Below are positions 5,643 through 61,768 of a stretch of DNA of 64,000 nt, one piece after another. The position numbers were made by a program, and so were the translations under genes. Source of the DNA: Candidatus Vogelbacteria bacterium (lineage in GTDB: Bacteria; Patescibacteriota; Minisyncoccia; Phycocordibacterales; XYD1-FULL-46-19); contig CAIRHC010000007.1 in assembly GCA_903878275.1 (NCBI GenBank), forward strand, positions 78,482 to 142,481. Reading direction: 5' to 3'. The notes beneath the pieces are model-generated. The model did not search any database, was not told the DNA's origin, and saw only the letters and a program-made list of their open reading frames with translations. The first letter of the stretch is position 1, and each line of letters opens with the position of its first letter.

Positions 5643-6212
5643 ATGGAAACCACTAAACCAACAACAACCAATAGACCACAGACCGGAGGTTTTGCTAGTC
5701 GCAAACCAGAAGGTTTTCGCCCGCGCCGATCTGGCGGTGATCGAAAATTTACCGAACGAGAAAAACCAGAATTTGACCATAAAGTCATCAATGTTCGTCG
5801 GGTGGCGCGTGTTGTCGCCGGCGGTCGTCGTTTTAGTTTCTCGGTCGTTGTTGTGGCTGGTGATCGTAAAGGGCGAGTTGGCGTTGGTATCGGCAAGGCT
5901 GGTGATACTTCGCTTGCCATTGAAAAAGCTCTAAACAAAGCGAAGAAAGAGATGATTCGCGTGCCTTTGACCGACAACAAATCAATTGCTCACGAAGTTG
6001 AAGCCAAATTTAAAGCCGCTCATATCATTATTCGTCCAGCCAAAGGACGAGGTTTGATTGCTGGTAGTTCGGTTCGCGTTTTGCTCAATTTGGCTGGCGT
6101 CAAAGATGTGAATGCAAAAATTTCTTCACGCAGTAAAGATAAATTAAATATTGCTCGGGCGACCATTATTGCTTTGTCTAGTTTGCCGAAGACCAATACA
6201 AAATCTGCCTAA
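5643..6212 (+). CDS. rpsE: 30S ribosomal protein S5 with ~45-aa Arg-rich N-terminal extension
   Basis: S5 dsRBD/core motifs (RVVAGGRRFSF.V..GD..GRVG.G.GKA). Confidence 0.9.
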   Translation: METTKPTTTNRPQTGGFASRKPEGFRPRRSGGDRKFTEREKPEFDHKVINVRRVARVVAGGRRFSFSVVVVAGDRKGRVGVGIGKAGDTSLAIEKALNKAKKEMIRVPLTDNKSIAHEVEAKFKAAHIIIRPAKGRGLIAGSSVRVLLNLAGVKDVNAKISSRSKDKLNIARATIIALSSLPKTNTKSA

Positions 6213-24166: not shown

Positions 24167-24248
24167 ATTTTGAAGTATGTTTTATGGCTAAAACATTTTT
24201 GCAAGCAAAAATGTTCGCCCGAACAAATTTCTTTGAAATTTGTTTTAG

Positions 24249-24652
24249 GGGGATGATCGGCTTCGACAGGTAGCCTTTCTCTAGTGTGTATGTGGAGACT
24301 CCGAATCCTCCTTAAACATCGGAAAAACAGTCAAATGCCAACGCATCTGACAAGGGACTTGTGGCTTCGCCATATTTCTCTCCAGCCTTGGCTTTAGCCT
24401 AACGCTGGTGCTGGCTTAAATCGCAGTCTGGATGATTTAAGTTGGTATAATAAATTCTGGACTAGCAATTAAACATTTCTCGGTTTAAAAGCGAAACAAA
24501 GAGAATCGACTAATTAAGGTTTTGTTTGTTTAACACTTAGTTAGTTTAAATCCGCTCGGCGATTAGCCGAGCGGGACATAAACAATCTACACATATAGAT
24601 TCACTAAAGTAACCTATTTGCACGGGGGTTCGATTCCCCCCATCTCCACCCA
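24249..24652 (+). ncRNA. ssrA: tmRNA (ssrA)
   Basis: 5' GGGGATGATCGGCTTCGACAGG; 3' tRNA-like GGGGGTTCGATTCCCCC T-arm + CATCTCCACC with a G3:U wobble; internal tag ORF ending ..PALALA-TAA at 24337-24402. Confidence 0.8.
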
Positions 24653-49632: not shown

Positions 49633-50841
49633 ATGCTCTTTATTTACAAAACATTAGACAAGGCGGGGACAGAACAATCTGGCAGTATCGAAGCGCCCAA
49701 TATTGACTTGGCGATTAGTTCTCTTCAGCGACGAGGTTTGGTGATCGTCTCGGTCAAGCCAGAAGAAGTGGCTGGGCAGAATTTTTTGAGTCGCTTCAGT
49801 ATCTTTCAGCGTATTTCAAATAAAGACGTCGTGATGCTTTCCCGGCAAATTGCGACAATGTTCGAAGCCAAAGTTTCCGTGATGGCATCTTTTCGTTTGC
49901 TGGCAAATGAGAGTGAAAATCCGATTTTGCGAATGGCTTTGACCGATATCACCGATGACATCAAAGGCGGTATTCCAGTCTCGGCCGCCCTTGCCAAGCA
50001 TCCCAATATTTTCTCTGATTTTTATGTCAATATGGTCCGGGCCGGTGAAGAAACCGGAAAAATGTCTGAAGCGTTTTCTTATTTAGCCGATCACCTTGAT
50101 CGATCCTACGCTTTGTCGTCGCGAGCAAAAAATGCTCTGATTTATCCGGCGTTCGTGGTCGCCTCGTTCGTGGTGGTGATGGTTGTAATGATTATCTTTA
50201 TTATCCCACGCCTATCGGCGGTTTTGATGGAAACGGGTCAAGATTTGCCGATTTATACCAAAGTCGTCATCGGAATTAGTAATTTTGCTTCAAGCTACTG
50301 GCTTCTTTTCTTGGTAGCGTTTGGGGCGATTGGTTTTTATCTTTATCAATATACTTCTACCATAAAAGGCAAAGAAGCCCTGGCACGATTAAAAATCTCT
50401 ATCCCATATGTTGGTAGTTTGTATCGCAAGCTTTATTTAGCCCGTATTGCCGACAACATCAACACGATGCTTTCTAGTGGTATTTCAATGGTGCGGGCTT
50501 TGGAAATTACCGGTGCGGTGGTGGGTAATGAAGTGTACAAAAATATTTTACTCGAATCAGCCGAATCAATTAAGTCGGGAAGTACCGTTTCCGATATTTT
50601 TTCGCGTTATCCAGAAATTCCGGGGGTGATGGTGCAGATGATTAAAGTCGGAGAGGAGACTGGTAAGGTTGGTTTTACTTTGGAGAAATTATCGGTTTTT
50701 TATGAAAGAGAAGTAAATAATGAGGTGGATACTTTGGTGGGCTTGATTGAGCCGGTGATGATCGTGGTCTTGGGCGTCGGCGTGGGTTTACTTTTGACCT
50801 CGGTACTCGTGCCAATTTACAACTTGGCTTCAGCGATGTAG
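49633..50841 (+). CDS. pilC: type IV pilus platform protein PilC (GspF family)
   Basis: 402 aa, two GspF repeats, 3 TM. Confidence 0.85.
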   Translation: MLFIYKTLDKAGTEQSGSIEAPNIDLAISSLQRRGLVIVSVKPEEVAGQNFLSRFSIFQRISNKDVVMLSRQIATMFEAKVSVMASFRLLANESENPILRMALTDITDDIKGGIPVSAALAKHPNIFSDFYVNMVRAGEETGKMSEAFSYLADHLDRSYALSSRAKNALIYPAFVVASFVVVMVVMIIFIIPRLSAVLMETGQDLPIYTKVVIGISNFASSYWLLFLVAFGAIGFYLYQYTSTIKGKEALARLKISIPYVGSLYRKLYLARIADNINTMLSSGISMVRALEITGAVVGNEVYKNILLESAESIKSGSTVSDIFSRYPEIPGVMVQMIKVGEETGKVGFTLEKLSVFYEREVNNEVDTLVGLIEPVMIVVLGVGVGLLLTSVLVPIYNLASAM

Positions 50842-50848
50842 GTGAGAA

Positions 50849-50884
50849 CCCCCAGAATTTGCCAAGGCAAATTCTGGGGGTTCT
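50849..50884 (+). terminator. terminator cccccagaatttgcc-aa-ggcaaattctggggg + T-run
   Basis: perfect 15-bp stem. Confidence 0.7.
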
Positions 50885-50994
50885 GGTTTCCGAGGTCGAA
50901 CCTTAAATCCCCAAAAAGTTTACCCTGTAGTGAAAAATTCTCGTTTTTCTACTACCGGGGGTTCGACTTCAAATTTAAAAAACAAAAAATAATT

Positions 50995-51369
50995 ATGGTC
51001 AAAAAAGAAATAAAATCAAAAGTTACTCTAGAAAGTCTGAATCAGACGGTTGAAAATTTGGCGACCATCACCAATCGTCGTTTTGATGATACTCATAAAT
51101 TGATAGAAAATTTGGCTACCACTATGGCCAAGGGTTTTTCGAATACCAATGAACTGATAGAAAATCTCGCAATTAGCACCAAGGCTGGTTTTGATAAGGT
51201 AGATGAAAGATTAGATAAAGTTGAATCAGATATTACCGTCATAAAATCAGACATTACCGGCATCAAACAACGCCTGACCAGCCTAGACAACCGCCTAGAT
51301 ACGTTTGTCGATCACGAAAAGCGTTTGACCAAAGTGGAGTCCACCTTGAAAATCAGGGTCAAACATTAA
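50995..51369 (+). CDS. coiled-coil protein, paralogue 1 of 3
   Basis: MVKKEIKSKVTLESLNQTVENLA...; C-terminal 30 aa identical to the 55833 copy. Confidence 0.55.
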   Translation: MVKKEIKSKVTLESLNQTVENLATITNRRFDDTHKLIENLATTMAKGFSNTNELIENLAISTKAGFDKVDERLDKVESDITVIKSDITGIKQRLTSLDNRLDTFVDHEKRLTKVESTLKIRVKH

Positions 51370-51621
51370 AATAGCGGGGAATTATCCACCGTTTACTCTT
51401 AAACCTCCTAGGCATTGCAATCTCTCGGTGCTATAATTAAAAAATTAAAAACAACATTATTATTTAATAATCAATTATTTCCGGAAAATTTTGCCAAGCA
51501 AAATTTTCCGGTCAACAAATAAGCTTCCCCGAGGTCGAGTCGTTTCTCGGAGGTCGAACCTTAAATCCCCAAAAAGGTTTGACCTCGGATAATTCGACCT
51601 CGGGGAAACAAAAACATTTCT

Positions 51622-52131
51622 ATGAAAAAATATTTAAATAAATCTAGTGGTTTTACTCTTATTGAACTCCTGGTCGTCATCGCCATCATCGGTATCCTGG
51701 CGGGGATTGTGCTTACTTCGCTATCGAGCGCTAGAAATAAAGCCAATGATGCTAAAATTATTTCACAACTTGGTCAGATCCGTTCAGCTGCCGAATTAAA
51801 TTTTAACCCCAATGATGGTCAAGGCGGCTGGGGCCAGGCAAGCTCTACCCAGACCTGTGGCAATGCGGCCGCACCTACAACACCCCCCACCGTAGCCCCA
51901 CTTTTTAAAAAGCCAGAGTTAGTCAAATTAATTTCTAGTACCGCAGCCCTCTCTAGTGGTGGGACATATTGTAACGTGATCCCTGCCTCGGGTACCGCCC
52001 GAGCTTCTTGGTTATTCGGAGCAACACTTGTTTCAGATACTAGTAAGACCTGGTGCGTTGATTCTTCGGGCAATTCAAAACTAATTACGCCAGGAACAAT
52101 CTTCAACACTGCAATGACTGTTTGCCCATAA
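51622..52131 (+). CDS. type IV pilin (prepilin, class III signal)
   Basis: MKKYLNKSSG|FTLIELLVVIAIIGILAGIV. Confidence 0.88.
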   Translation: MKKYLNKSSGFTLIELLVVIAIIGILAGIVLTSLSSARNKANDAKIISQLGQIRSAAELNFNPNDGQGGWGQASSTQTCGNAAAPTTPPTVAPLFKKPELVKLISSTAALSSGGTYCNVIPASGTARASWLFGATLVSDTSKTWCVDSSGNSKLITPGTIFNTAMTVCP

Positions 52132-52170
52132 ATATAATTTAAAATTATTAACTAACATAATTCAAAATTC

Positions 52171-52671
52171 ATGATTCATAATTCATCTAAAAAAGGTTTC
52201 ACCTTGATCGAGCTTCTTGTTGTCATCGCCATTATCGGTATTTTAGCCGGCATTGTGCTGACTTCACTTAGCACAGCTAGGACCAAGGCTCAAGATGCGC
52301 AGGTTATTTCACAATTAGGTCAAATGCGTTCAGCTGCCGAAATTTATTATTCAGGTACTGGTGGAGGTACGTATGGCGTAGTCGCAAACACTTGCTCGAC
52401 AGGCAGTTCTTTGTTTCTTGATGATACTACTGGTATGGGTAAATTAATTACTTCTACTCTTGCGATTGCTATCGCTGCTAATGTCGATTGTGGTGTTCTT
52501 GCTGGAGGTTCTGCGTGGTCTGTCGCCGCAAAATTGCCCGGCGGTTTATGGTATTGTGTTGACAGTACTGGTGTCTCAAGAGGGAGCACTGCTGCTGGGG
52601 CTGCTTACACTGCTTTGACTGGTGCTGCTAGTGCTGCACATATTTCTGCTGGCGGTTCTGCTTGTAATTAA
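52171..52671 (+). CDS. type IV pilin
   Basis: KKG|FTLIELLVVIAIIGILAGIV; C-terminal Cys pair. Confidence 0.88.
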   Translation: MIHNSSKKGFTLIELLVVIAIIGILAGIVLTSLSTARTKAQDAQVISQLGQMRSAAEIYYSGTGGGTYGVVANTCSTGSSLFLDDTTGMGKLITSTLAIAIAANVDCGVLAGGSAWSVAAKLPGGLWYCVDSTGVSRGSTAAGAAYTALTGAASAAHISAGGSACN

Positions 52672-53547
52672 AGCTGGAGGAGGCTTCGCCTCCTCTCAAA
52701 AACAAGGTGAAACAAGGTGAGGCAAAAACAAGGGGAGGTTGAAACAAGGGGAGGTTGAAACAAGGGGAGGTTGAGCCTCCCCTTTGGCGTTGGTTGTGTT
52801 ATAATATAATCAATGTCTCGTAATATTGAATTAGCGATTGATGAATATTATCACATCTTTAATCATGGCAACGGTGACCGACTAATTTTTATTGACGAAA
52901 AAGATAAAGAGCGATTTGTTAAACTACTCTTTTTAGCTAATGGTTGTAACTCTTTTGATTTTGAAGATCTTTCTTCTGGTCAAGAATTCTCTTTTGATCG
53001 TGGTGAGACACTCGTCGCCATTGGCACGTGGTGTTTAATGGATAATCATTATCATCTATTAATTAAAGAAACCACCGATGGTGGAATTAGTCAGTTTATG
53101 CATCGTCTAGCAACTAGCTATACAATGTATTTCAATCGTCGTCATAGAAAAAGGGGAAGTTTGTTTGAGGGACGGTTTCGAGCAAAACACTTAGGTCAGG
53201 ATGAATATTTAAGACATATCTTTGCTTACACCCATCTCAATCCCGTGAAAATGATTGAGCCAAAATGGAAAGAGGTTGGGTTGAAGAATTTGCCGACAGT
53301 CACTAAATTTTTAAAAGAGTATAGATTTTCTAGCTATCTTGATTATCTCGGCGTTGAGCGAAAAGAAAATAAAATTCTTGATAGAGGAGCTTTTCCGCAA
53401 TACTTTTCAAACCCGGAAGAGATCGAGGTTGAAATGATGGACTGGCTAGATTTCGGTAATTTTTATTAGGGTTAATTTTGGGGTGGGGGTCATCAATATT
53501 ATAACACAAATGATACCCCTAGGGGAGGCTCAACCTCCCGACGGGCA
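52672..53547 (+). mobile_element. IS200/RAYT-like element: HUH Y1 transposase gene flanked by inverted hairpin termini (ggggaggttgagcctcccc ... ttgtgttataatat)
   Basis: left end 52765-52806 and right end 53489-53541 are reverse complements of each other; stuttered partial repeats (aacaaggggaggttga x3) at the left end. Confidence 0.65.
52813..53469 (+). CDS. HUH-superfamily Y1 transposase (IS200-like / REP-associated tyrosine transposase-like)
   Basis: NHYHLL (HxH) and YTHLNPVK (Tyr + NPVK) motifs. Confidence 0.7.
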   Translation: MSRNIELAIDEYYHIFNHGNGDRLIFIDEKDKERFVKLLFLANGCNSFDFEDLSSGQEFSFDRGETLVAIGTWCLMDNHYHLLIKETTDGGISQFMHRLATSYTMYFNRRHRKRGSLFEGRFRAKHLGQDEYLRHIFAYTHLNPVKMIEPKWKEVGLKNLPTVTKFLKEYRFSSYLDYLGVERKENKILDRGAFPQYFSNPEEIEVEMMDWLDFGNFY

Positions 53548-53833
53548 TCAGCGGTAGGGAAGTAGCAAAAAAGCAAAAAGGGGATAACTACTTTTTCTCG
53601 GTTTATTTTTTTGTGGTATCATGCTTAAAGTAATATCAAATTTATTAAAATTATTAGCTTTTAAGAGATGTCCAGAAAATTTTGCTTGGCAAAATTTTCC
53701 GGAAAAGGCTAAAACATCAAAAGACGTTCGCCTAAACAAAAAAAATATGAAAAAAATTAAAGAACTAACCGGAAAAATTTTTTCAGGAAAAAATTTTTCC
53801 GGTCAAGTCCAAAATAATAAAGCCTGCCCCGTA

Positions 53834-54298
53834 GTGAAAAATTCTCGTTTTTCTACTACTGGGGGCTTCACTTTAATCGAATTATTAGTCGTCATTGCCA
53901 TTATCGGTATTTTAGCCGGCATTATTTTGGTTTCCCTAAGTAGCGCCAGGACCAAAGCCAAGACCACTGCCACCTTTGCTTCACTGAATGGTTTAAGACC
54001 AGCGATCGCGATGTGTTGCGGGAATGGGAGTGACTTGGTTGGGGCTGGAACACCACCAGAAACACAAATACCAGCTGTCGGCGGAACAGACATCTGTGAT
54101 GCGGCTAATCCTGTCGGTGTCAATTTACCGACCGCTGCCCAACTTGGGGTTAATATTGTAGAATATACTGCGACGAAAGGTTGTTCTGATCCCGAACCAT
54201 ATTTTTCTGTTCAAACCTCTGGTTCTTCTAATCCTCTTTGTGATAGTGCCGGCACATACACCATCGGTGTCTCAACTTCGTCGTCTCCGTGCAACTAA
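53834..54298 (+). CDS. type IV pilin; GTG start at 53834 preferred, alternative ATG at 53747 would give a 40-aa leader
   Basis: ..KNSRFSTTGG|FTLIELLVVIAIIGILAGII; the sequence between 53747 and 53834 contains a REP-like palindrome. Confidence 0.7.
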   Translation: MKNSRFSTTGGFTLIELLVVIAIIGILAGIILVSLSSARTKAKTTATFASLNGLRPAIAMCCGNGSDLVGAGTPPETQIPAVGGTDICDAANPVGVNLPTAAQLGVNIVEYTATKGCSDPEPYFSVQTSGSSNPLCDSAGTYTIGVSTSSSPCN

Positions 54299-54584
54299 CA
54301 TTAATTAGTAGCGAAGAATTTTATTTTTACCTCAAATTCTTAAGGTTGTGAAAAAGAATAAAGAACTAACCGGAAAAATTTTTTCAGGAAAAAATTTTTC
54401 CGGCCAACCTCATCACCAAAAAGCCTACCCTGATTTCTCGGAGGTCGAACCTTAAATCCCCAAAAAGTTTACCCCGTAGTGAAAAATTCTTATTTTTCTA
54501 CTACTGGGGTTCGACCTCGGAGAATACAACCTCGGGAAAACAGGCTAAAACATCAAAGATGTTCGCCTAAACAAAAACATTTTT

Positions 54585-55163
54585 ATGAAAAAATATTTAC
54601 AACCCACAACCCAGAAACTACAACTTAGCCGTGGCTTCACCTTAATAGAGCTTCTGGTTGTCATCGCCATTATCGGTATTTTGGCGGGCATTGTCCTGAC
54701 TTCGCTTTCTAGCGCTCGAGCAAAAGCCAAAGATTCCGCCCTTATCTCTGGCTTGTCTGGTTTAAGATCGCAGATTGAGACGGTGGCTAGTGATAATTAT
54801 GGACCAATAGTTGGAGCTTGGGGAGTTAAATCGGACGGCACAGGGACAACTGGTTCTAAGGGTGTAACGGATTCGTCTGTTTGTTCTACTTATGCTAGTA
54901 CTGATGGTGGCGTAGTTTATAAAATGATGAAAGATCTAGCCAAACAATCTGGTAATAACGTCGTTTGTGCGGTGGGAGTTGGTGGAAGAACCTGGGTAAT
55001 TTTTGGAGTTTTGCCTAGTACCGCTAATCCTAATGACCCTACTACTGCTGATTATTATTGTTATGATAGTTCTGGTGGTTCTAAAAAACAGGTCGGTTTC
55101 CCGGTGAATGTAGTTGGTGCTGGAGTGGAAAATGTCAATCTTGATGTAAAATGTCAGTCATAG
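54585..55163 (+). CDS. type IV pilin
   Basis: ..LQLSRG|FTLIELLVVIAIIGILAGIV. Confidence 0.88.
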   Translation: MKKYLQPTTQKLQLSRGFTLIELLVVIAIIGILAGIVLTSLSSARAKAKDSALISGLSGLRSQIETVASDNYGPIVGAWGVKSDGTGTTGSKGVTDSSVCSTYASTDGGVVYKMMKDLAKQSGNNVVCAVGVGGRTWVIFGVLPSTANPNDPTTADYYCYDSSGGSKKQVGFPVNVVGAGVENVNLDVKCQS

Positions 55164-55412
55164 ACATTATTTAAATTTAAAAAAATTATCCCCGGAATTT
55201 TTGCTAGCAAAAATTCCGGGGATAATTCTCAAAACTAAATTTCCTGAAAATTTTAAAAATCGGCTGGCGCAACCGCTCGGATTTGCCAGGGCAAATCCGA
55301 GCGGTTGCCACTTTTCCTCTCTGCGAACCTCCAAACCAGTGGATAACTCCGTATGTAATCTTTTTTTTATATGTTATTATTTAGACAATGGTGAAAAAGA
55401 GAAATCATAATT

Positions 55413-55754
55413 ATGATTAAAAAAGAAATAAAACCAAAAGTTACTCTAGAAAGTATTAATAATACGATTGAGCACTTGGCTATAAGTGTGGCAAATGGTT
55501 TTGCTGCCGTCGATGAAAGATTTAATAAGGTAGATGAAAGATTTGAGCAGGTAGATAAAAGATTCGATAAGGTTGAAAACGATATTGTCGTGATAAAAAA
55601 AGACTTAAATATCGTCAAGACCGATGTCGCTGTCCTAAAGACCGACTTGCGAAAATTAGACCACAAGATTGGTCTGGTAGATAAAAGAAATCGCGAAGAT
55701 ATCGACGCTCTCGCTTCCGATATGGTGTTGGTCAAGAAAAAAGTGTCTTTATGA
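55413..55754 (+). CDS. coiled-coil protein, paralogue 2
   Basis: MIKKEIKPKVTLE..; FNKVDERFEQVDKRFDKVE heptads. Confidence 0.55.
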   Translation: MIKKEIKPKVTLESINNTIEHLAISVANGFAAVDERFNKVDERFEQVDKRFDKVENDIVVIKKDLNIVKTDVAVLKTDLRKLDHKIGLVDKRNREDIDALASDMVLVKKKVSL

Positions 55755-55832
55755 GTTTGAACCTTACCGGAAATTTTGACTAGTCAAAATTTCCGGTAAG
55801 GTTCCCCAAACATTTTTAAAATAAACATAATT

Positions 55833-56174
55833 ATGATTAAAAAAGAAATAAAACCAAAAGTTACCTTGGAAGGTCTGAACCAGACGGTTGAGAAATTGGC
55901 TACTAGTATGATCAAGGGTTTTGCTCATACTCACGAGCTGATCGAAAATCTGGCGATCAGCACCAAGGCTGGTTTTGATAAAGTAGACGAAAGATTTGAT
56001 AAAGTGGATGAAAGATTAGATAAAGTGGAGGGGAGATTAGGTAAGGTTGAAAACGACATCACTGGCATCAAACAACGCCTGACCAGCCTAGACAACCGTC
56101 TAGACACTTTTGTCGATCACGAAAAGCGTTTGACCAAAGTCGAATCAGCCTTGAAAATTAGAGTCAAACATTAA
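55833..56174 (+). CDS. coiled-coil protein, paralogue 3
   Basis: MIKKEIKPKVTLE..; C-terminus identical to paralogue 1. Confidence 0.55.
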   Translation: MIKKEIKPKVTLEGLNQTVEKLATSMIKGFAHTHELIENLAISTKAGFDKVDERFDKVDERLDKVEGRLGKVENDITGIKQRLTSLDNRLDTFVDHEKRLTKVESALKIRVKH

Positions 56175-56340
56175 CAAAATTCCCCGAGGTCGAACCTTTT
56201 TGGGGATTTAAGGTTCGACCTCGGCAAGATCCCCCAATATTTTTAATAAAAAATAACCATTTTAAAAATTAATTTCAAGGCTAAAACATTTCAACCCAAA
56301 ACGATTCTCGTTTGACTACGAAATGTTCGCCTAAATCAAG

Positions 56341-58110
56341 ATGAAAAAACAAATCATAATCATCGCCTCCATTTTTATCGCCATTTTTGCTCTAGCCTCC
56401 GCCTACCTCCCCGGCGTGCTAAGTAGTTCGTCAAAAAAAGCCGAAGCCGATACCGCCTCGACAGTTGACAGCCGTCTCTTGGGGTACATCTGGAGTTCAA
56501 ATATTGGTTGGGTCAAGTTAGATCCCAGCACTCCAGCTCCAAAATTTGAAGACGAAAAAAATAATGTCCGGATTATGTCCGATGGCACTGTCGTGGGCTA
56601 TGCGTGGAGCTCAAACATTGGCTGGATTAGATTTGATCCGGTTGTTGATCTTGCTATCCCCACCGCAACTCCCCCGTCTTATTCACCGATAGATGTTTAC
56701 AGTAGTAATACTTCAGTTCGGTACGACAAAGCTGCGAATAAATTTTCTGGTTGGGCAAGAGTTTGTTCGGTTTTTGTCGGTGATACTTGTGCCGGGGCAT
56801 TAAAAGACGACGTAGTCAGAGGTGGCTGGGACGGCTGGGTCCAAATGCGAAATGTAAGTATCGACTTGTCTGGGACAGAGACTGGCCAAGTAGGTTCTCT
56901 GGTTGGCTGGGCGTGGGGCGATCTAAATATCGGTTGGCTTAAATTTGACTGGAAACATATTCCTCCTGGCGGATGTACTCCAGATCCCGCCAATTGCGGT
57001 TGTTGCCCTGGTATTTCCTGTTCTTGTCCTCCACCTATTCCGACTCCGCCCAACGCCCTCTGTGTCGCCGAAGGAGGCATAAATGTGCTCGATGCGAGCG
57101 GTAATGTTGTCGGTGTTAATTTCCCTTTGAATACTCCACCAACCCCTATTGACCTTAAAGTTGGTTCTTTGTCTGGAGGAAACGGTAGTTTTGCTTATGA
57201 ATGGACACAAGACGTTGGAAATTTATCTCCCCTGATCGGAAGTTTTGATTCCGCTGTTCCCACTACGACTTTCCAGGTCTTTTATGGTACTGTCGGTGTT
57301 TACAATCCAAAAATCAAGATCACCAGCGGTGGGGCTTCAAATGAAATTGAGTGTTCTGCAAGCGGAATCACTGTTGATAATTTTTATACCTTTAATTGCG
57401 AAAACGGAATGATCACCGCCAACAGTACAACTTATTGTAATCACGAAACAGCGACGACAACACTGGCTAGTGTATTCCAAGGAGCTTCGGACTTTGCCTT
57501 TACGGCTGTTCCAGATACTGGGTATAAACTTGATGCTTGGGGAGGTTCTCTTTGTAATGGATCAGCTGCCGGCTCTAATTGTACGGACAATAACCACAAC
57601 GGTTCTTCTCAAACCATCACTGCTAGTTTTGTACCGGACACTGCAGATAGTTGTGGATTTAGTTTTAGTGATCCCAATGCCCTTGATATAAGTCTCTCTT
57701 TTGGCAACAGTCCGACGATTGGTTATTTTTATCCAAGTTCTCCTAGCAATTCTGCCACTATCATTTTCACCCCGGGTGACCCGAACTGTACAGGAGGAGT
57801 TAATTTGACAAGTAGTAATTACCCCGCTAATCCTAGCCTCGATGAACCTTTTTACGAATCACAAATGGTCTGTGCCAAGAAGGTGGGTTCCGGTTATTCA
57901 TCTTTTACGGTGGCTAATTGTACCGGTCTAAACGATGGTGGTAAGGTTGGGGTTTCAGCCAGAAGCACGGCTGATCTACAAGCTGATCTCGGTACCGCTT
58001 CGCCAATGATTAATTGTAAAATGGTAAAGATAAAAAATAAAGCGGCTGCTCCAGTTGCTGTAACCGAACAGGAAGTAAAGGTTTGTATTAACGATATAGT
58101 AATTAACTAA
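56341..58110 (+). CDS. large secreted/membrane-anchored protein with three (L/V)xG(Y/W)xWSSNIGW(V/I)(K/R)(L/F)D repeats and a Cys-rich segment
   Basis: 589 aa; N-terminal TM; lies between the pilins and pilD. Confidence 0.6.
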   Translation: MKKQIIIIASIFIAIFALASAYLPGVLSSSSKKAEADTASTVDSRLLGYIWSSNIGWVKLDPSTPAPKFEDEKNNVRIMSDGTVVGYAWSSNIGWIRFDPVVDLAIPTATPPSYSPIDVYSSNTSVRYDKAANKFSGWARVCSVFVGDTCAGALKDDVVRGGWDGWVQMRNVSIDLSGTETGQVGSLVGWAWGDLNIGWLKFDWKHIPPGGCTPDPANCGCCPGISCSCPPPIPTPPNALCVAEGGINVLDASGNVVGVNFPLNTPPTPIDLKVGSLSGGNGSFAYEWTQDVGNLSPLIGSFDSAVPTTTFQVFYGTVGVYNPKIKITSGGASNEIECSASGITVDNFYTFNCENGMITANSTTYCNHETATTTLASVFQGASDFAFTAVPDTGYKLDAWGGSLCNGSAAGSNCTDNNHNGSSQTITASFVPDTADSCGFSFSDPNALDISLSFGNSPTIGYFYPSSPSNSATIIFTPGDPNCTGGVNLTSSNYPANPSLDEPFYESQMVCAKKVGSGYSSFTVANCTGLNDGGKVGVSARSTADLQADLGTASPMINCKMVKIKNKAAAPVAVTEQEVKVCINDIVIN

Positions 58111-58115
58111 TTAAG

Positions 58116-58871
58116 ATGCTCGAGACAACCGTTCTTCTCGTTCTTGGTCTACTTATCGGCAGTTTCCTAAATGTCGTGATTCTAAGATACAACACGGGTC
58201 GCTCGCTTGGCGGGCGATCGGGTTGTCTCTCTTGCAATAAGCGTCTTCACTGGTACGAGCTTTTGCCGGTCTTTAGTTACTTGGCACAAAAAGGGAAGTG
58301 TCGTGGTTGTGCTAGTAAAATATCTATTCAATATCCGCTAGTGGAAGTTTCTACCGCAATCCTGTTTGCCTTGGTGGCGTGGCGTTTTGCCGACGATCTG
58401 GTCAATCTGATTTTCTTTTTGCTCGTGATACCAGTACTCGTGGTCTTGGTCGCTTACGACACCAAGCACAAAATCATTCCCAATTTTTTTGTTTATTTTT
58501 TTATTTTTCTGGCTTTAGTGAAAGTCTTATTGATTAGCCCGGGCTGGGATGGCTGGCTCGGGGGCTTGGTCTTGGCTGGTTTTCTTGGTTTTCTTTGGCT
58601 TGTGTCGAGCGGTCGCTGGCTCGGTTTTGGTGACGTAAAATTGGTTCTTGGTATCGGTCTGATTCTGGGCTGGCGAGGTGGCTTGTCGGCGTTGTGTCTT
58701 TCTGTCTGGATTGGTGCCGCAGTCGGTCTTATTTTAATTTTTATTGGTCGGGCGAAGTTGTTTCGTTTTCAAAAATATATTACAATGAAGAGTGAATTAC
58801 CATTTGCTCCATTTTTAGTGTTAGGATTTTTATTAAATCTTTTGTTCTCAATCAATGTTTTGCCTTTTTAA
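58116..58871 (+). CDS. pilD: prepilin peptidase (A24 family)
   Basis: N-terminal CxxC..CxxC zinc knuckle, polytopic; LGLLIGSFLNVVI. Confidence 0.85.
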   Translation: MLETTVLLVLGLLIGSFLNVVILRYNTGRSLGGRSGCLSCNKRLHWYELLPVFSYLAQKGKCRGCASKISIQYPLVEVSTAILFALVAWRFADDLVNLIFFLLVIPVLVVLVAYDTKHKIIPNFFVYFFIFLALVKVLLISPGWDGWLGGLVLAGFLGFLWLVSSGRWLGFGDVKLVLGIGLILGWRGGLSALCLSVWIGAAVGLILIFIGRAKLFRFQKYITMKSELPFAPFLVLGFLLNLLFSINVLPF

Positions 58872-58938
58872 CAAAAAAATAAAGTTGAACTTTGCAAAAA
58901 AACTTGCTTCCTATGAAGGTTCGGCGGTTTACCGGGTA

Positions 58939-59553
58939 GTGAAAAATTCTCATTTTTCTACTGCCCGGCGGGGATTCACGGTCATCGAATTGGTCGTGGT
59001 CATCGCTATTTTTATTATTATCACCGGTATTGTCGTGGCTGATATTCCATCTTTTCAAAATAAAAGTTCGTTGGATCTGACGGTCAGTGAAGTCGCCACT
59101 TATATCCGTGGAGCGCAGGTTTATGGAGCTGTGCAAAAGGATACACCATCAGGAGTAGGAAAATCTGTTTATGGAATTAGCTTAACGCAAGGAGCTTCTG
59201 AATTTTATTTATTTCAGAATGATAAAGCACCTCTTCCGCACAAGGAAAACTACGTCATCAAAGGTTTTGATATAGCTAAGATTTGCCAGAAATCTACTGG
59301 TGGGACTGTTGATTCTTCTGCTTCTAGTTTAGACATAGTCTATACTCCAAGTAATTACGAAGTGAACATCGGGACAGCCGTCGGGGCAATTTTTTATTCT
59401 AATTTTGACGCCGATAACCCTGACGACAATAAAATGTCCGGTATCGAATATGTCGATATAAAAATTAGCAACAAAAGAAATCCCACCCTACCGGGTTGTG
59501 TGCGAGTTTATTCCAACGGGCAGGTGGCTATTACTAATTGTGATGGTTGCTAA
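58939..59553 (+). CDS. minor pilin/pseudopilin (GTG start)
   Basis: (M)KNSHFSTARRG|FTVIELVVVIAIF. Confidence 0.6.
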   Translation: MKNSHFSTARRGFTVIELVVVIAIFIIITGIVVADIPSFQNKSSLDLTVSEVATYIRGAQVYGAVQKDTPSGVGKSVYGISLTQGASEFYLFQNDKAPLPHKENYVIKGFDIAKICQKSTGGTVDSSASSLDIVYTPSNYEVNIGTAVGAIFYSNFDADNPDDNKMSGIEYVDIKISNKRNPTLPGCVRVYSNGQVAITNCDGC

Positions 59554-61306: not shown

Positions 61307-61530
61307 AAGAAAAAGGCAAGGTTCAAAAAGGCAAGGTTCAACCTTACCTCTGGGTACCATTTGTGTTGTAATATTTTTAAGCTTAACGGGTATAAAAAAA
61401 GGCAAGGTTCAACCTTACCTCTGGGTACCATTTGTGTTGTAATATTTAAAACTGTTTCGAAGGTAGGAAAAAGGCAAGGTTCAACCTTACCTCTGGGTAC
61501 CATTTGTGTTGTAATATTTTTAAGCTTAAC
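61307..61530. repeat. tandem array of three ~52-bp units (aaaaaggcaaggttcaaccttacctctgggtaccatttgtgttgtaatattt), period ~77 bp
   Basis: three identical copies read directly; each is a hairpin plus a TTGTGTTGTAAT tail like the RAYT element termini. Confidence 0.7.
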
Positions 61531-61768
61531 GGGTATAAAAAATCTTTTTCAATTTGTCATCGCTAAAACATCTCTCCAGTGAACGTAAAATAGATTTTAG
61601 CGTTCCTCGATCAAGCTCTTCGTGCAGGGGAATAGTTATGAAATAAGCCACTTTACCGACTTTCATTACTAATCTGGCGTGGCTACCTTTTTGTCTAATT
61701 TTCAAAAAACCTTCGGCGAGAAGAATTTGCAATAGGTTTTTACCAGAAATTCTGCGAAGTTTAGGCAT
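61526..61768 (-). CDS. hicA: HicA-family mRNA interferase toxin
   Basis: MPKLRRISGK.L..IL...GF...RQKGSHARL. Confidence 0.8.
   Translation of the reverse strand: MPKLRRISGKNLLQILLAEGFLKIRQKGSHARLVMKVGKVAYFITIPLHEELDRGTLKSILRSLERCFSDDKLKKIFYTR

Follow-up and report, generated by a model that had tools for sequence, protein, structure and literature searches.

The pilS loci of Neisseria store variable 3' coding parts without a promoter or 5' end, and these parts recombine into pilE. The small dispersed repeats (SDR) described by Elhai et al. in 2008 are reportedly 21-27 nt long, occur in Nostocales and often lie in heptamer arrays or HIP1. Genomes of the Candidate Phyla Radiation (CPR, or Patescibacteria) are very small, and targeted full-text literature searches yielded no description of small palindromic repeat elements in them. 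Two classes of palindromic repeat are documented elsewhere: Rickettsia palindromic elements (RPE), which lie in frame within protein-coding genes (PMC10969869; PMC3733652), and repetitive extragenic palindromes (REP) of 20-40 bp, which include intragenic copies and compensatory-stem subfamilies and are associated with REP-associated tyrosine transposases (RAYT) (PMC3733652; PMC3116915). Here we describe a 42-nt hairpin, the inner element, from the type IV pilus locus of a Candidatus Vogelbacteria relative (Paceibacterota, CPR). The analysed stretch of DNA, referred to as the window, comprises 64,000 nt of contig CAIRHC010000007.1; the named homologues of its PilC come from Vogelbacteria and Paceibacterota and its pilus cluster occupies 43.5-61.3 kb. 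The inner element probably belongs to a new REP/RPE-like family of mini-elements in the CPR, nested and present in prepilin leaders, in a locus where pilin paralogues have also been duplicated and have decayed.

The inner element in the pilus locus and in unrelated genes

The core of the inner element, GTAGTGAAAAATTCTnnTTTTTCTACT, occurs at positions 50927, 53831, 54476 and 58936, in all cases on the + strand and with at most 2 mismatches; from 100 shuffles 0 such matches were expected. A first-pass annotation of the same DNA had reported a ~90-bp module repeated four times. All the sequences and coordinates it gave are present and the repeats are real, but the full ~89-nt imperfect palindrome exists only twice (50887-50975 and 54436-54524, 93% identical) and it is only the inner 42 nt that occur four times. 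The 89-nt module consists of two nested hairpins, and at 53822 and 58927 the inner 42-nt part stands alone, without the outer palindrome. The 42-nt unit is made up of an unpaired 4-nt 5' tag, reading CTTG, CCTG or TTTA, and a 38-nt hairpin with stems of 4, 5 and 6 bp (15 pairs), two bulged Ts on the 3' arm and the hexaloop TTCTNA. When folded, the modules were more stable than shuffled sequences, with z-scores of -3.1 to -6.0. One forward frame of the element is open (..PVVKNSxFSTTG..) and it can therefore sit inside genes without breaking them. Scans of the 64-kb window with a covariance model and a structure descriptor gave no further copies of the inner hairpin. The copies and the outer repeats that hold two of them are the following, where a slash marks the prepilin cleavage site:

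50923-50960, + strand: inner hairpin core in the first composite
54472-54509, + strand: inner hairpin core in the second composite
53827-53864, + strand: inner hairpin copy 2, leader-coding; encodes CPVVKNSRFSTTG and abuts the G/FTLIEL codons
58932-58968, + strand: inner hairpin copy 4, in the 40-aa leader of a minor prepilin
50892-50970, + strand: composite A; outer arms 50892-50902 and 50960-50970, loop of 57 nt that holds the inner element
54441-54518, + strand: composite B; outer arms 54441-54451 and 54508-54518, loop of 56 nt; in the upstream region of pilin 54585
51550-51586, + strand: empty outer repeat, GAGGTCGAACC-TTAAATCCCCAAAAA-GGTTTGACCTC; in the upstream region of pilin 51622
56186-56222, - strand: empty outer repeat with inverted loop, just after the coiled-coil gene 55833-56174

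The outer repeat has the form GAGGTCGAACC - TTAAATCCCCAAAAA - GGTTCGACCTC. Empty copies have a loop of 15 nt, filled copies one of 57 or 56 nt, which is 42 or 41 nt more. From the outer repeat down to the ATG, the stretches ahead of pilins 51622 and 54585 can be aligned over their full length, and that of 54585 differs by two clean extra blocks, the 41-nt inner hairpin and a 31-nt hairpin called P-seg (see below). Judged from this alignment, the two upstream regions are a within-genome comparison of an empty and a filled site.

Exact-pattern scans of the GTDB species genomes and of JGI metagenomes (241 million metagenome records) found the element together with its flanks (GCTTGCCCCGTAGTGAAAAATTCTGATTTTTCTACTACTGGGGT) in other CPR contigs; exact matching misses diverged copies. 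The retrieved loci carry labels of the form L001:

L002 = L011: inner element in frame in the C-terminal part of IleRS
L014: inner element in frame in a diverged IleRS orthologue
L017: inner element in frame in GatA, in a linker of variable length
L019: inner element in intergenic DNA
L012: inner element just upstream of a gene
L006: inner element nested in another hairpin

The reading frame across the element is ..PVVKNSDFSTTG.. in all open reading frames (ORFs), the same frame as in the two window pilins. For IleRS, exactly 14 residues are missing at the element site in 22 of the 22 closest homologues (49-70% identical), and the peptide words of the element appear in none of the 120 best IleRS matches. 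Wherever an empty site exists the element adds exactly 42 nt, or 14 codons. The copies in other Paceibacteria are 95-97% identical, and the L017 hairpin agrees with window copy 54467 at 39 of 40 positions. L017 has the LigA-GatC-GatA neighbourhood of Vogelbacteria-type loci; its LigA is 59% identical to the window LigA and its GatA 60-64% identical to the GatA of relatives. Orthology cannot account for near-identical copies in genes that are unrelated and in genomes this divergent, and thus the element has moved or been transferred. The same 42-nt hairpin in IleRS, GatA and intergenic DNA also contradicts the earlier view of the main module as a pilin promoter plus leader.

The structure of the hairpin is conserved beyond its sequence. 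A covariance model built from nine copies detected two diverged ones, L011:3215-3250 (12 nt upstream of a start codon) and L006:814-849, and the structure-descriptor scan recovered exactly the diverged and the canonical copies, with 0 matches in 20 shuffled windows. The diverged copies keep stems of 4, 5 and 5-6 bp, the two bulged Ts, TTCTNA and the tag CTTG, and differ in their stem sequences. We observed double substitutions in 10 of the 15 stem pairs; 1 of 164 cells was unpaired and each of the three wobble cells reads T-G on the sense strand. At all nine canonical loci the element points in the direction in which the surrounding genes are transcribed. The hairpin is maintained on one strand and is readable there as RNA or as single-stranded DNA.

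The 11-kb locus L011 carries 2-3 related copies. A longer hairpin just upstream of its IleRS start (5747-5832) has the base of the 42-nt element (CCCCGTAGT..ACTACGGGG) and a different, longer apex (ATTTTGCCAT..ATGGCAAAAT). Scans by exact matching may thus underestimate both the size and the diversity of this hairpin family.

Several candidates were discarded. L003, L008, L021 and L039 are chance matches, and most of the metagenome pattern matches (L004, L005, L007 and others) represent one unrelated repeated contig. Programmed translational bypass, as in T4 gene 60 or byp-like elements, was rejected because the ORFs run straight through the element in one frame and the insert is a multiple of three. 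Rfam searches at gathering and E-value thresholds gave generic hairpin noise only and no family match, and in viral contigs the inner and outer repeats produced a single chance match. The host search for PVVKNSxFSTTG with a 51-aa concatenated query returned 10 word-sharing candidates, none with E <= 10, which indicates no more than the rarity of the peptide.

Prepilin leaders and the other repeats of the pilus locus

The genes of the pilus cluster that surround the repeats are arranged as follows:

49633-50841: pilC
from 50995: small coiled-coil gene, downstream of pilC
from 51622 and from 52171: major prepilins
52813-53469, + strand: RAYT-like Y1 transposase gene, after prepilin 52171 and before prepilin 53747
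53747-54298, + strand: prepilin with the 41-aa leader MKKIKELTGKIFSGKNFSGQVQNNKACPVVKNSRFSTTGG/FTLIEL, which contains two palindromes; Pfam N_methyl, start context as in the paralogues
from 54585: prepilin
from 55413 and from 55833: two further coiled-coil paralogues
from 56341: gene for a 589-aa protein without family match
58116-58871: pilD, Peptidase_A24 match
58855-59553, + strand: minor prepilin whose ATG overlaps the end of pilD by 17 nt; 40-aa leader
from 58855 onward: minor prepilins

Pfam N_methyl was matched in 51622, 52171, 53747, 54585 and 58939, with the class III motif G(-1)/F(+1)..E(+5) and the hydrophobic helix, and every pilin body in the window is a complete gene. The ORFs that the first-pass annotation had described are present (GTG at 53834, 58939 and 50930, the last reading VKNSRFSTTGGSTSNLKNKK-stop, and a 49-aa ORF from 54479). 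It had taken the GTG codons at 53834 and 58939 for pilin starts, and here the comparison with relatives speaks against it. The minor-pilin orthologues in L027, L033, L035 and L037 start at an ATG that overlaps the end of pilD, with the N-termini MFSLFFKK, MFSFSKK, MFWSFGK and MFLFFKK; the window ATG at 58855 gives MFCLFNKK. As this upstream ATG is conserved in four orthologues, GTG 58939 is unnecessary. The leaders of the orthologues have 14, 16, 27 and 29 aa compared to 40 aa in the window, where the leader is longer because it contains the hairpin. ATG 53747 has the start context of its paralogues and of the major pilins of relatives (AAACAAAAA..ATGAAAAAA, giving MKK..). The GUG itself is buried in the 15-bp stem, with about -21 kcal/mol. 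There is no start codon between the hairpin and G/FTLIEL, so the hairpin is translated, at least partly, in both genes. We infer from these comparisons that translation starts at ATGs 53747 and 58855 and that the GTG within the hairpin is incidental. PilD presumably still processes the resulting 40-41-aa leaders.

If the 14 element codons are taken out of the 53747 leader, ..QVQNNKG/FTLIEL remains; if the 12 codons of the second palindrome (seg2) are taken out as well, the result is MKKIKELQVQNNKG/FTLIEL, an ordinary leader. Cutting out the bare palindromes (34 + 38 nt) also leaves the frame intact, and the idea that either insert alone would break the frame was dropped for that reason. Since the 42-nt unit is calibrated on IleRS, excision by codons is the more parsimonious reading.

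Extra blocks were also observed in the leaders of relatives. The orthologous minor-pilin leader of L027 (8590-8650) contains a different hairpin with the peptide KGFTLWNIANYSAG/FTLLEL and the direct repeats GGGTTTAC (duplicated GFT codons) on both sides; it reached only 13 bits with the covariance model and was not counted as a family member. In L037 there is a further extra block of 33 nt flanked by TTTACT. The codons just before G/FT appear to be a recurrent insertion site.

The remaining repeats of the locus are seg2, the P-seg hairpins and a truncated pilin 5' end:

53769-53802: seg2, a perfect 34-nt palindrome, leader-coding; with one base added on each side it makes the 12 codons TGKIFSGKNFSG
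54348-54430, + strand: 5' end left over from a lost pilin paralogue; GTG AAA AAG.., seg2 copy at 54370-54403, ..AAAGCCTACCC
53707-53737, + strand: P-seg hairpin, GGCTAAAACAT..ACGTTCGCCTAAAC; 9 nt upstream of ATG 53747
54543-54572, + strand: P-seg hairpin; a clean block of 31 nt without counterpart in the paralogous region ahead of pilin 51622
56279-56336, + strand: P-seg hairpin whose apex holds the small hairpin AAAACGATTCTCGTTT; 5 nt upstream of ATG 56341
24186-24224, + strand: fourth copy of the P-seg hairpin; ends ~25 nt upstream of the tmRNA gene (24249-24651)

The seg2 palindrome has two copies in the window. With its flanks it forms the second duplicated segment reported before (CCGGAAAAATTTTTTCAGGAAAAAATTTTTCCGG plus flanks), which we recovered as an 82-nt repeat with 85% identity at 53748-53829 and 54349-54430. 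Between the start codon (ATG to GTG) and the foot of the inner hairpin, 54348-54430 shows homology to 53747-53829; there it is interrupted, and a stop codon follows in the outer repeat. Judged by this homology, a pilin paralogue was lost here and has left a genuine remnant, the only true orphaned pilin 5' end. Of the orphan leaders proposed earlier, those at 50930 and 54476 are inner copies in the loop of the outer repeat. The 83-nt 5' end is also the only pilin fragment in the locus, and the repeats are 5' non-coding or leader pieces. The proposed patchwork of duplicated pilin heads thus holds in so far as there are short duplicated 5' pieces, but most of these are hairpin elements that are not pilin-specific.

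P-seg combines an invariant base (GGCTAAAACAT / ATGTTCGCC) with a variable apex and lies 5-25 nt upstream of four genes, including tmRNA. As reported before, a third segment (GGCTAAAACAT..GTTCGCCTAAAC) precedes the ATGs 53747, 54585 and 56341, to which the copy at 24186-24224 is now added. Its position upstream of tmRNA means that P-seg is not pilin-specific, contrary to its description as a pilin promoter, and because a sigma-70 promoter scan was not above shuffles it cannot be called a promoter. A second small hairpin follows the P-seg copy upstream of tmRNA. Highly expressed genes could have the tmRNA copy in common as a 5'-leader or promoter-proximal element.

The RAYT-like gene (52813-53469) has a Pfam Y1_Tnp match; with NCBIfam REP_Tyr_transpos it scores 42.8 bits, where the cutoff is 80. 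Its own inverted hairpins GGGAGGTTGAGCCTCCC (52765-52781 and 53523-53539) stand on either side and are unlike the inner hairpin. The gene (region 52707-53539) is single-copy and lies between the major pilin genes, and a 16-nt tandem repeat with 4.2 copies comes before it. Orthologues with 70-73% identity occupy the same slot in L030 (12290-13110) and L035 (11872-12525), which suggests a domesticated, vertically inherited gene. A 71-nt unit is repeated in tandem 3.1 times at 61325-61542. It consists of a small hairpin (AAGGTTCAACCTT) and, after it, TTTGTGTTGTAATAT, and can be aligned to the sequence on the left side of both the RAYT-like gene and its orthologue in L030. By this alignment the copies, which lie immediately downstream of the pilus operon, resemble solitary RAYT-end modules.

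Other features of the locus were noted in passing. The three coiled-coil paralogues (50995-51369, 55413-55754 and 55833-56174) encode ~115 aa with internal 21-nt repeats and are scattered among the pilin genes; a homologue follows pilC in L030 (11302-11652), and these proteins have no family assignment above cutoff. The 589-aa protein (56341-58110) has an N-terminal hydrophobic segment and repeated G(Y/W)(I/A)W(S/G)..NIGW motifs, with no Pfam or NCBIfam match. The slot between the pilins and pilD is taken by a gene for 422-496 aa in all relatives, the equivalent of the 589-aa protein, which is a candidate pilus-associated protein. Long near-perfect hairpins stand after genes of the pilin locus at 50845-50884, 51477-51511, 53668-53702, 55184-55227, 55269-55308 and 55759-55804. 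They have a common apex resembling TTTGCCAAGGCAAA, different stem bases and no T-runs, and may be another related hairpin family or unusual terminators.

Explanations for the repeated modules

The modules would have two sources. The first is ordinary paralogy between tandemly duplicated pilin genes and the second is three families of tiny palindromic elements that would have been inserted into one another and into pilin 5' ends. The inner element would be a dispersed insertion-type element of Paceibacteria, residing in unrelated contexts and always in sense orientation. It may have spread as REPs or IS200/IS605 elements do, by a mechanism that recognises the hairpin, is specific for single strands and would make no target duplication. 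Its preferred sites would be the loops of other hairpins and tolerant coding sites, where a fixed 42 nt would never shift the frame. Prepilin leaders could serve as tolerated landing sites: the prepilin peptidase PilD removes the leader and hence an insert only lengthens a disposable peptide, to 40-41 aa.

A number of observations weigh against a mobile element of this kind. The copy number is low: a single locus holds all 4 copies of the 64 kb, and the scan of 241 million metagenome records gave only six canonical copies, of which one shares its sequence record with the single genome-contig match. The window copies share their flanks (GTTTACC on the left and GG.TTC(G)AC on the right), which points to possible local spread by recombination and not by transposition. 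We detected no target-site duplication and no direct repeat consistent across copies; the flank similarities GTTTACC and GGTTCGACC are only suggestive. The GTTTAC flanks prompted us to consider an IS608-like TTAC target, which was rejected as the copies outside the window have CTTG or CTCG there. Neither a parent element nor solitary half-sites were found in the window and ~130 kb of loci scanned. The RAYT-like gene, the only nearby candidate for a mobilising enzyme, is not supported in that role: its flanking hairpin is different, it occurs in L030 and L035 without the element, and no such gene is present in the element-bearing loci sampled. A leader of 40-41 aa is unusually long for a type IV prepilin. 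Finally, in the orthologous IleRS pair L011/L014 the element is identical at 42 of 44 positions compared to 73% and 65% for its flanks. The differences amount to one compensatory change from C-G to T-A, and 0 of 801 sliding windows matched this conservation. This exceeds what a dead selfish insert would predict and speaks for a role at the level of the host or of the RNA.

As the strongest rival we see an RNA hairpin that functions on the sense strand, a selected cis element (such as a protein site, mRNA stabiliser or translational gate) for which spread would be secondary. We regard it as unlikely, while giving it an appreciable chance. It would account for the strong covariation with conserved bulges and loop, for wobble pairs and copies that are all on the sense strand, and for an element far more conserved than its flanks in orthologous IleRS, with a compensatory pair. 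Several copies lie in 5' untranslated regions, 12-80 nt upstream of starts (window 50923 and 54472, L011:3215 and L012), and GUG and leader codons are locked in the stem of about -21 kcal/mol. However, a single-strand DNA recognition hairpin would yield the same covariation and strand bias, the element sits in frame at variable linkers of IleRS and GatA without evident common regulatory logic, and no Rfam family matches. A role in pilus regulation in particular is at odds with its absence from the pilin loci of relatives. It seems rather doubtful to us that the hairpin is a structure-constrained, sense-strand-specific functional module, as RNA or single-stranded DNA, carried near-unchanged across Paceibacteria genera. 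Equally doubtful is the corollary that it is kept even in essential genes and was recruited to four pilus-locus 5' ends here. Such a module could gate prepilin translation through the 15-bp stem over the leader or start region, or the stem could be a protein recognition site.

The first-pass annotation had favoured pilin genes that still recombine with one another and swap leaders in analogy to pilE/pilS, with pilins starting at GTG and orphan leaders as donors, which we consider very unlikely. Direct repeats of 89 nt (93%), 82 nt (85%) and ~31 nt within 8 kb and one true orphaned pilin 5' end are what such a process could use. An independent 743-nt contig (L001) even ends within an arm of the outer repeat, where repeats are expected to interrupt an assembly; it corresponds to window 54516-55258 with 0 mismatches, and so no alternative arrangement was seen. 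The modules, moreover, are not pilin-specific, silent cassettes that store variable pilin sequence are absent, and with upstream ATGs conserved the GTG starts are unnecessary. The swapped part would be cleaved off and thus the pilus surface could not change. The relatives L027, L030, L033, L035 and L037 (PilC 71-74% identical) have the same gene order with compact intergenic regions, and the inner, outer, seg2 and P-seg modules are absent from their pilin loci.

Purely local duplication and decay of pilin genes and upstream regions, with no element mobility, is highly improbable. In its favour, 8 kb span all copies of the window, pilins 51622 and 54585 have paralogous upstream regions, the composites resemble duplicates of each other and the pilin and coiled-coil genes are clearly duplicated, but near-identical copies in IleRS, GatA and other contexts at ~59% LigA identity remain unexplained, as does a clean 42-nt extra block within an otherwise intact palindrome.

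If the reading as a REP/RPE-like mini-element is correct, CPR genomes carry extremely small hairpin elements that nest, cross genera near-unchanged and sit in essential genes. Cleaved signal or leader peptides would then be safe landing sites, which would explain unusually long prepilin leaders. For annotation, apparent GTG starts, orphan-leader ORFs and contig breaks at such hairpins may be repeat artefacts. The conservation of the element above its flanks leaves room for a real, testable function.

Comparison with known systems

Several known systems share features with the repeats described here. Neisseria pilE/pilS likewise has several partial pilin-related sequences clustered around expressed pilin genes; in the window, by contrast, the repeats are non-coding or leader 5' pieces and the mature pilin would stay unaltered. 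Type IVb prepilins resemble the window prepilins in the G/F..E motif after a long basic leader and in the PilD peptidase encoded in the locus, whereas the mature parts and the orthologues in this case are type IVa-like, with leaders of 3-29 aa. On the sequence evidence, the extra leader length in the window prepilins is explained by the inserted palindromes.

Among the small repeats, miniature inverted-repeat transposable elements have terminal inverted repeats between target-site duplications and a parent, transposase-encoding insertion sequence with matching ends; the inner element is essentially two inverted arms, and no consistent direct repeat borders its copies. Cyanobacterial SDR are likewise hairpin repeats of <50 nt that fold with compensatory changes and insert into other repeats; they are 21-27 nt long compared to 42 nt for the inner element.

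REP and REPIN sequences come closer, as 20-40-nt imperfect hairpins with bulges, compensatory subfamilies, clustering or nesting and intragenic copies (PMC3733652; PMC3116915). The 38-nt hairpin falls within their stem-loop size of 20-40 bp, and the locus of the inner element also contains a Y1 (RAYT-like) gene. The unpaired GTAG/CGTC tag of REPs was not found: GTAG pairs with CTAC here and covaries (ATAG/CTAT and GTAA variants). Nor did the 64-kb window and the L011 locus show a high-copy, mostly extragenic distribution, and the RAYT-like gene has the flanks GGGAGGTTGAGCCTCCC where a cognate RAYT would be flanked by the same REP.

The inner element shares with RPEs that it is palindromic, lies in frame in unrelated genes, adds a tolerated peptide and is also found in intergenic DNA (PMC10969869; PMC3733652). 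In-frame insertion of the repeat into unrelated protein-coding genes was observed for IleRS, GatA and two prepilin leaders. RPEs are ~100-150 bp long and number dozens per genome in Rickettsia, whereas the inner element has 42 nt, is low-copy and belongs to the CPR. Its position in cleaved prepilin leaders, besides enzyme linkers, further sets it apart from the RPE descriptions.

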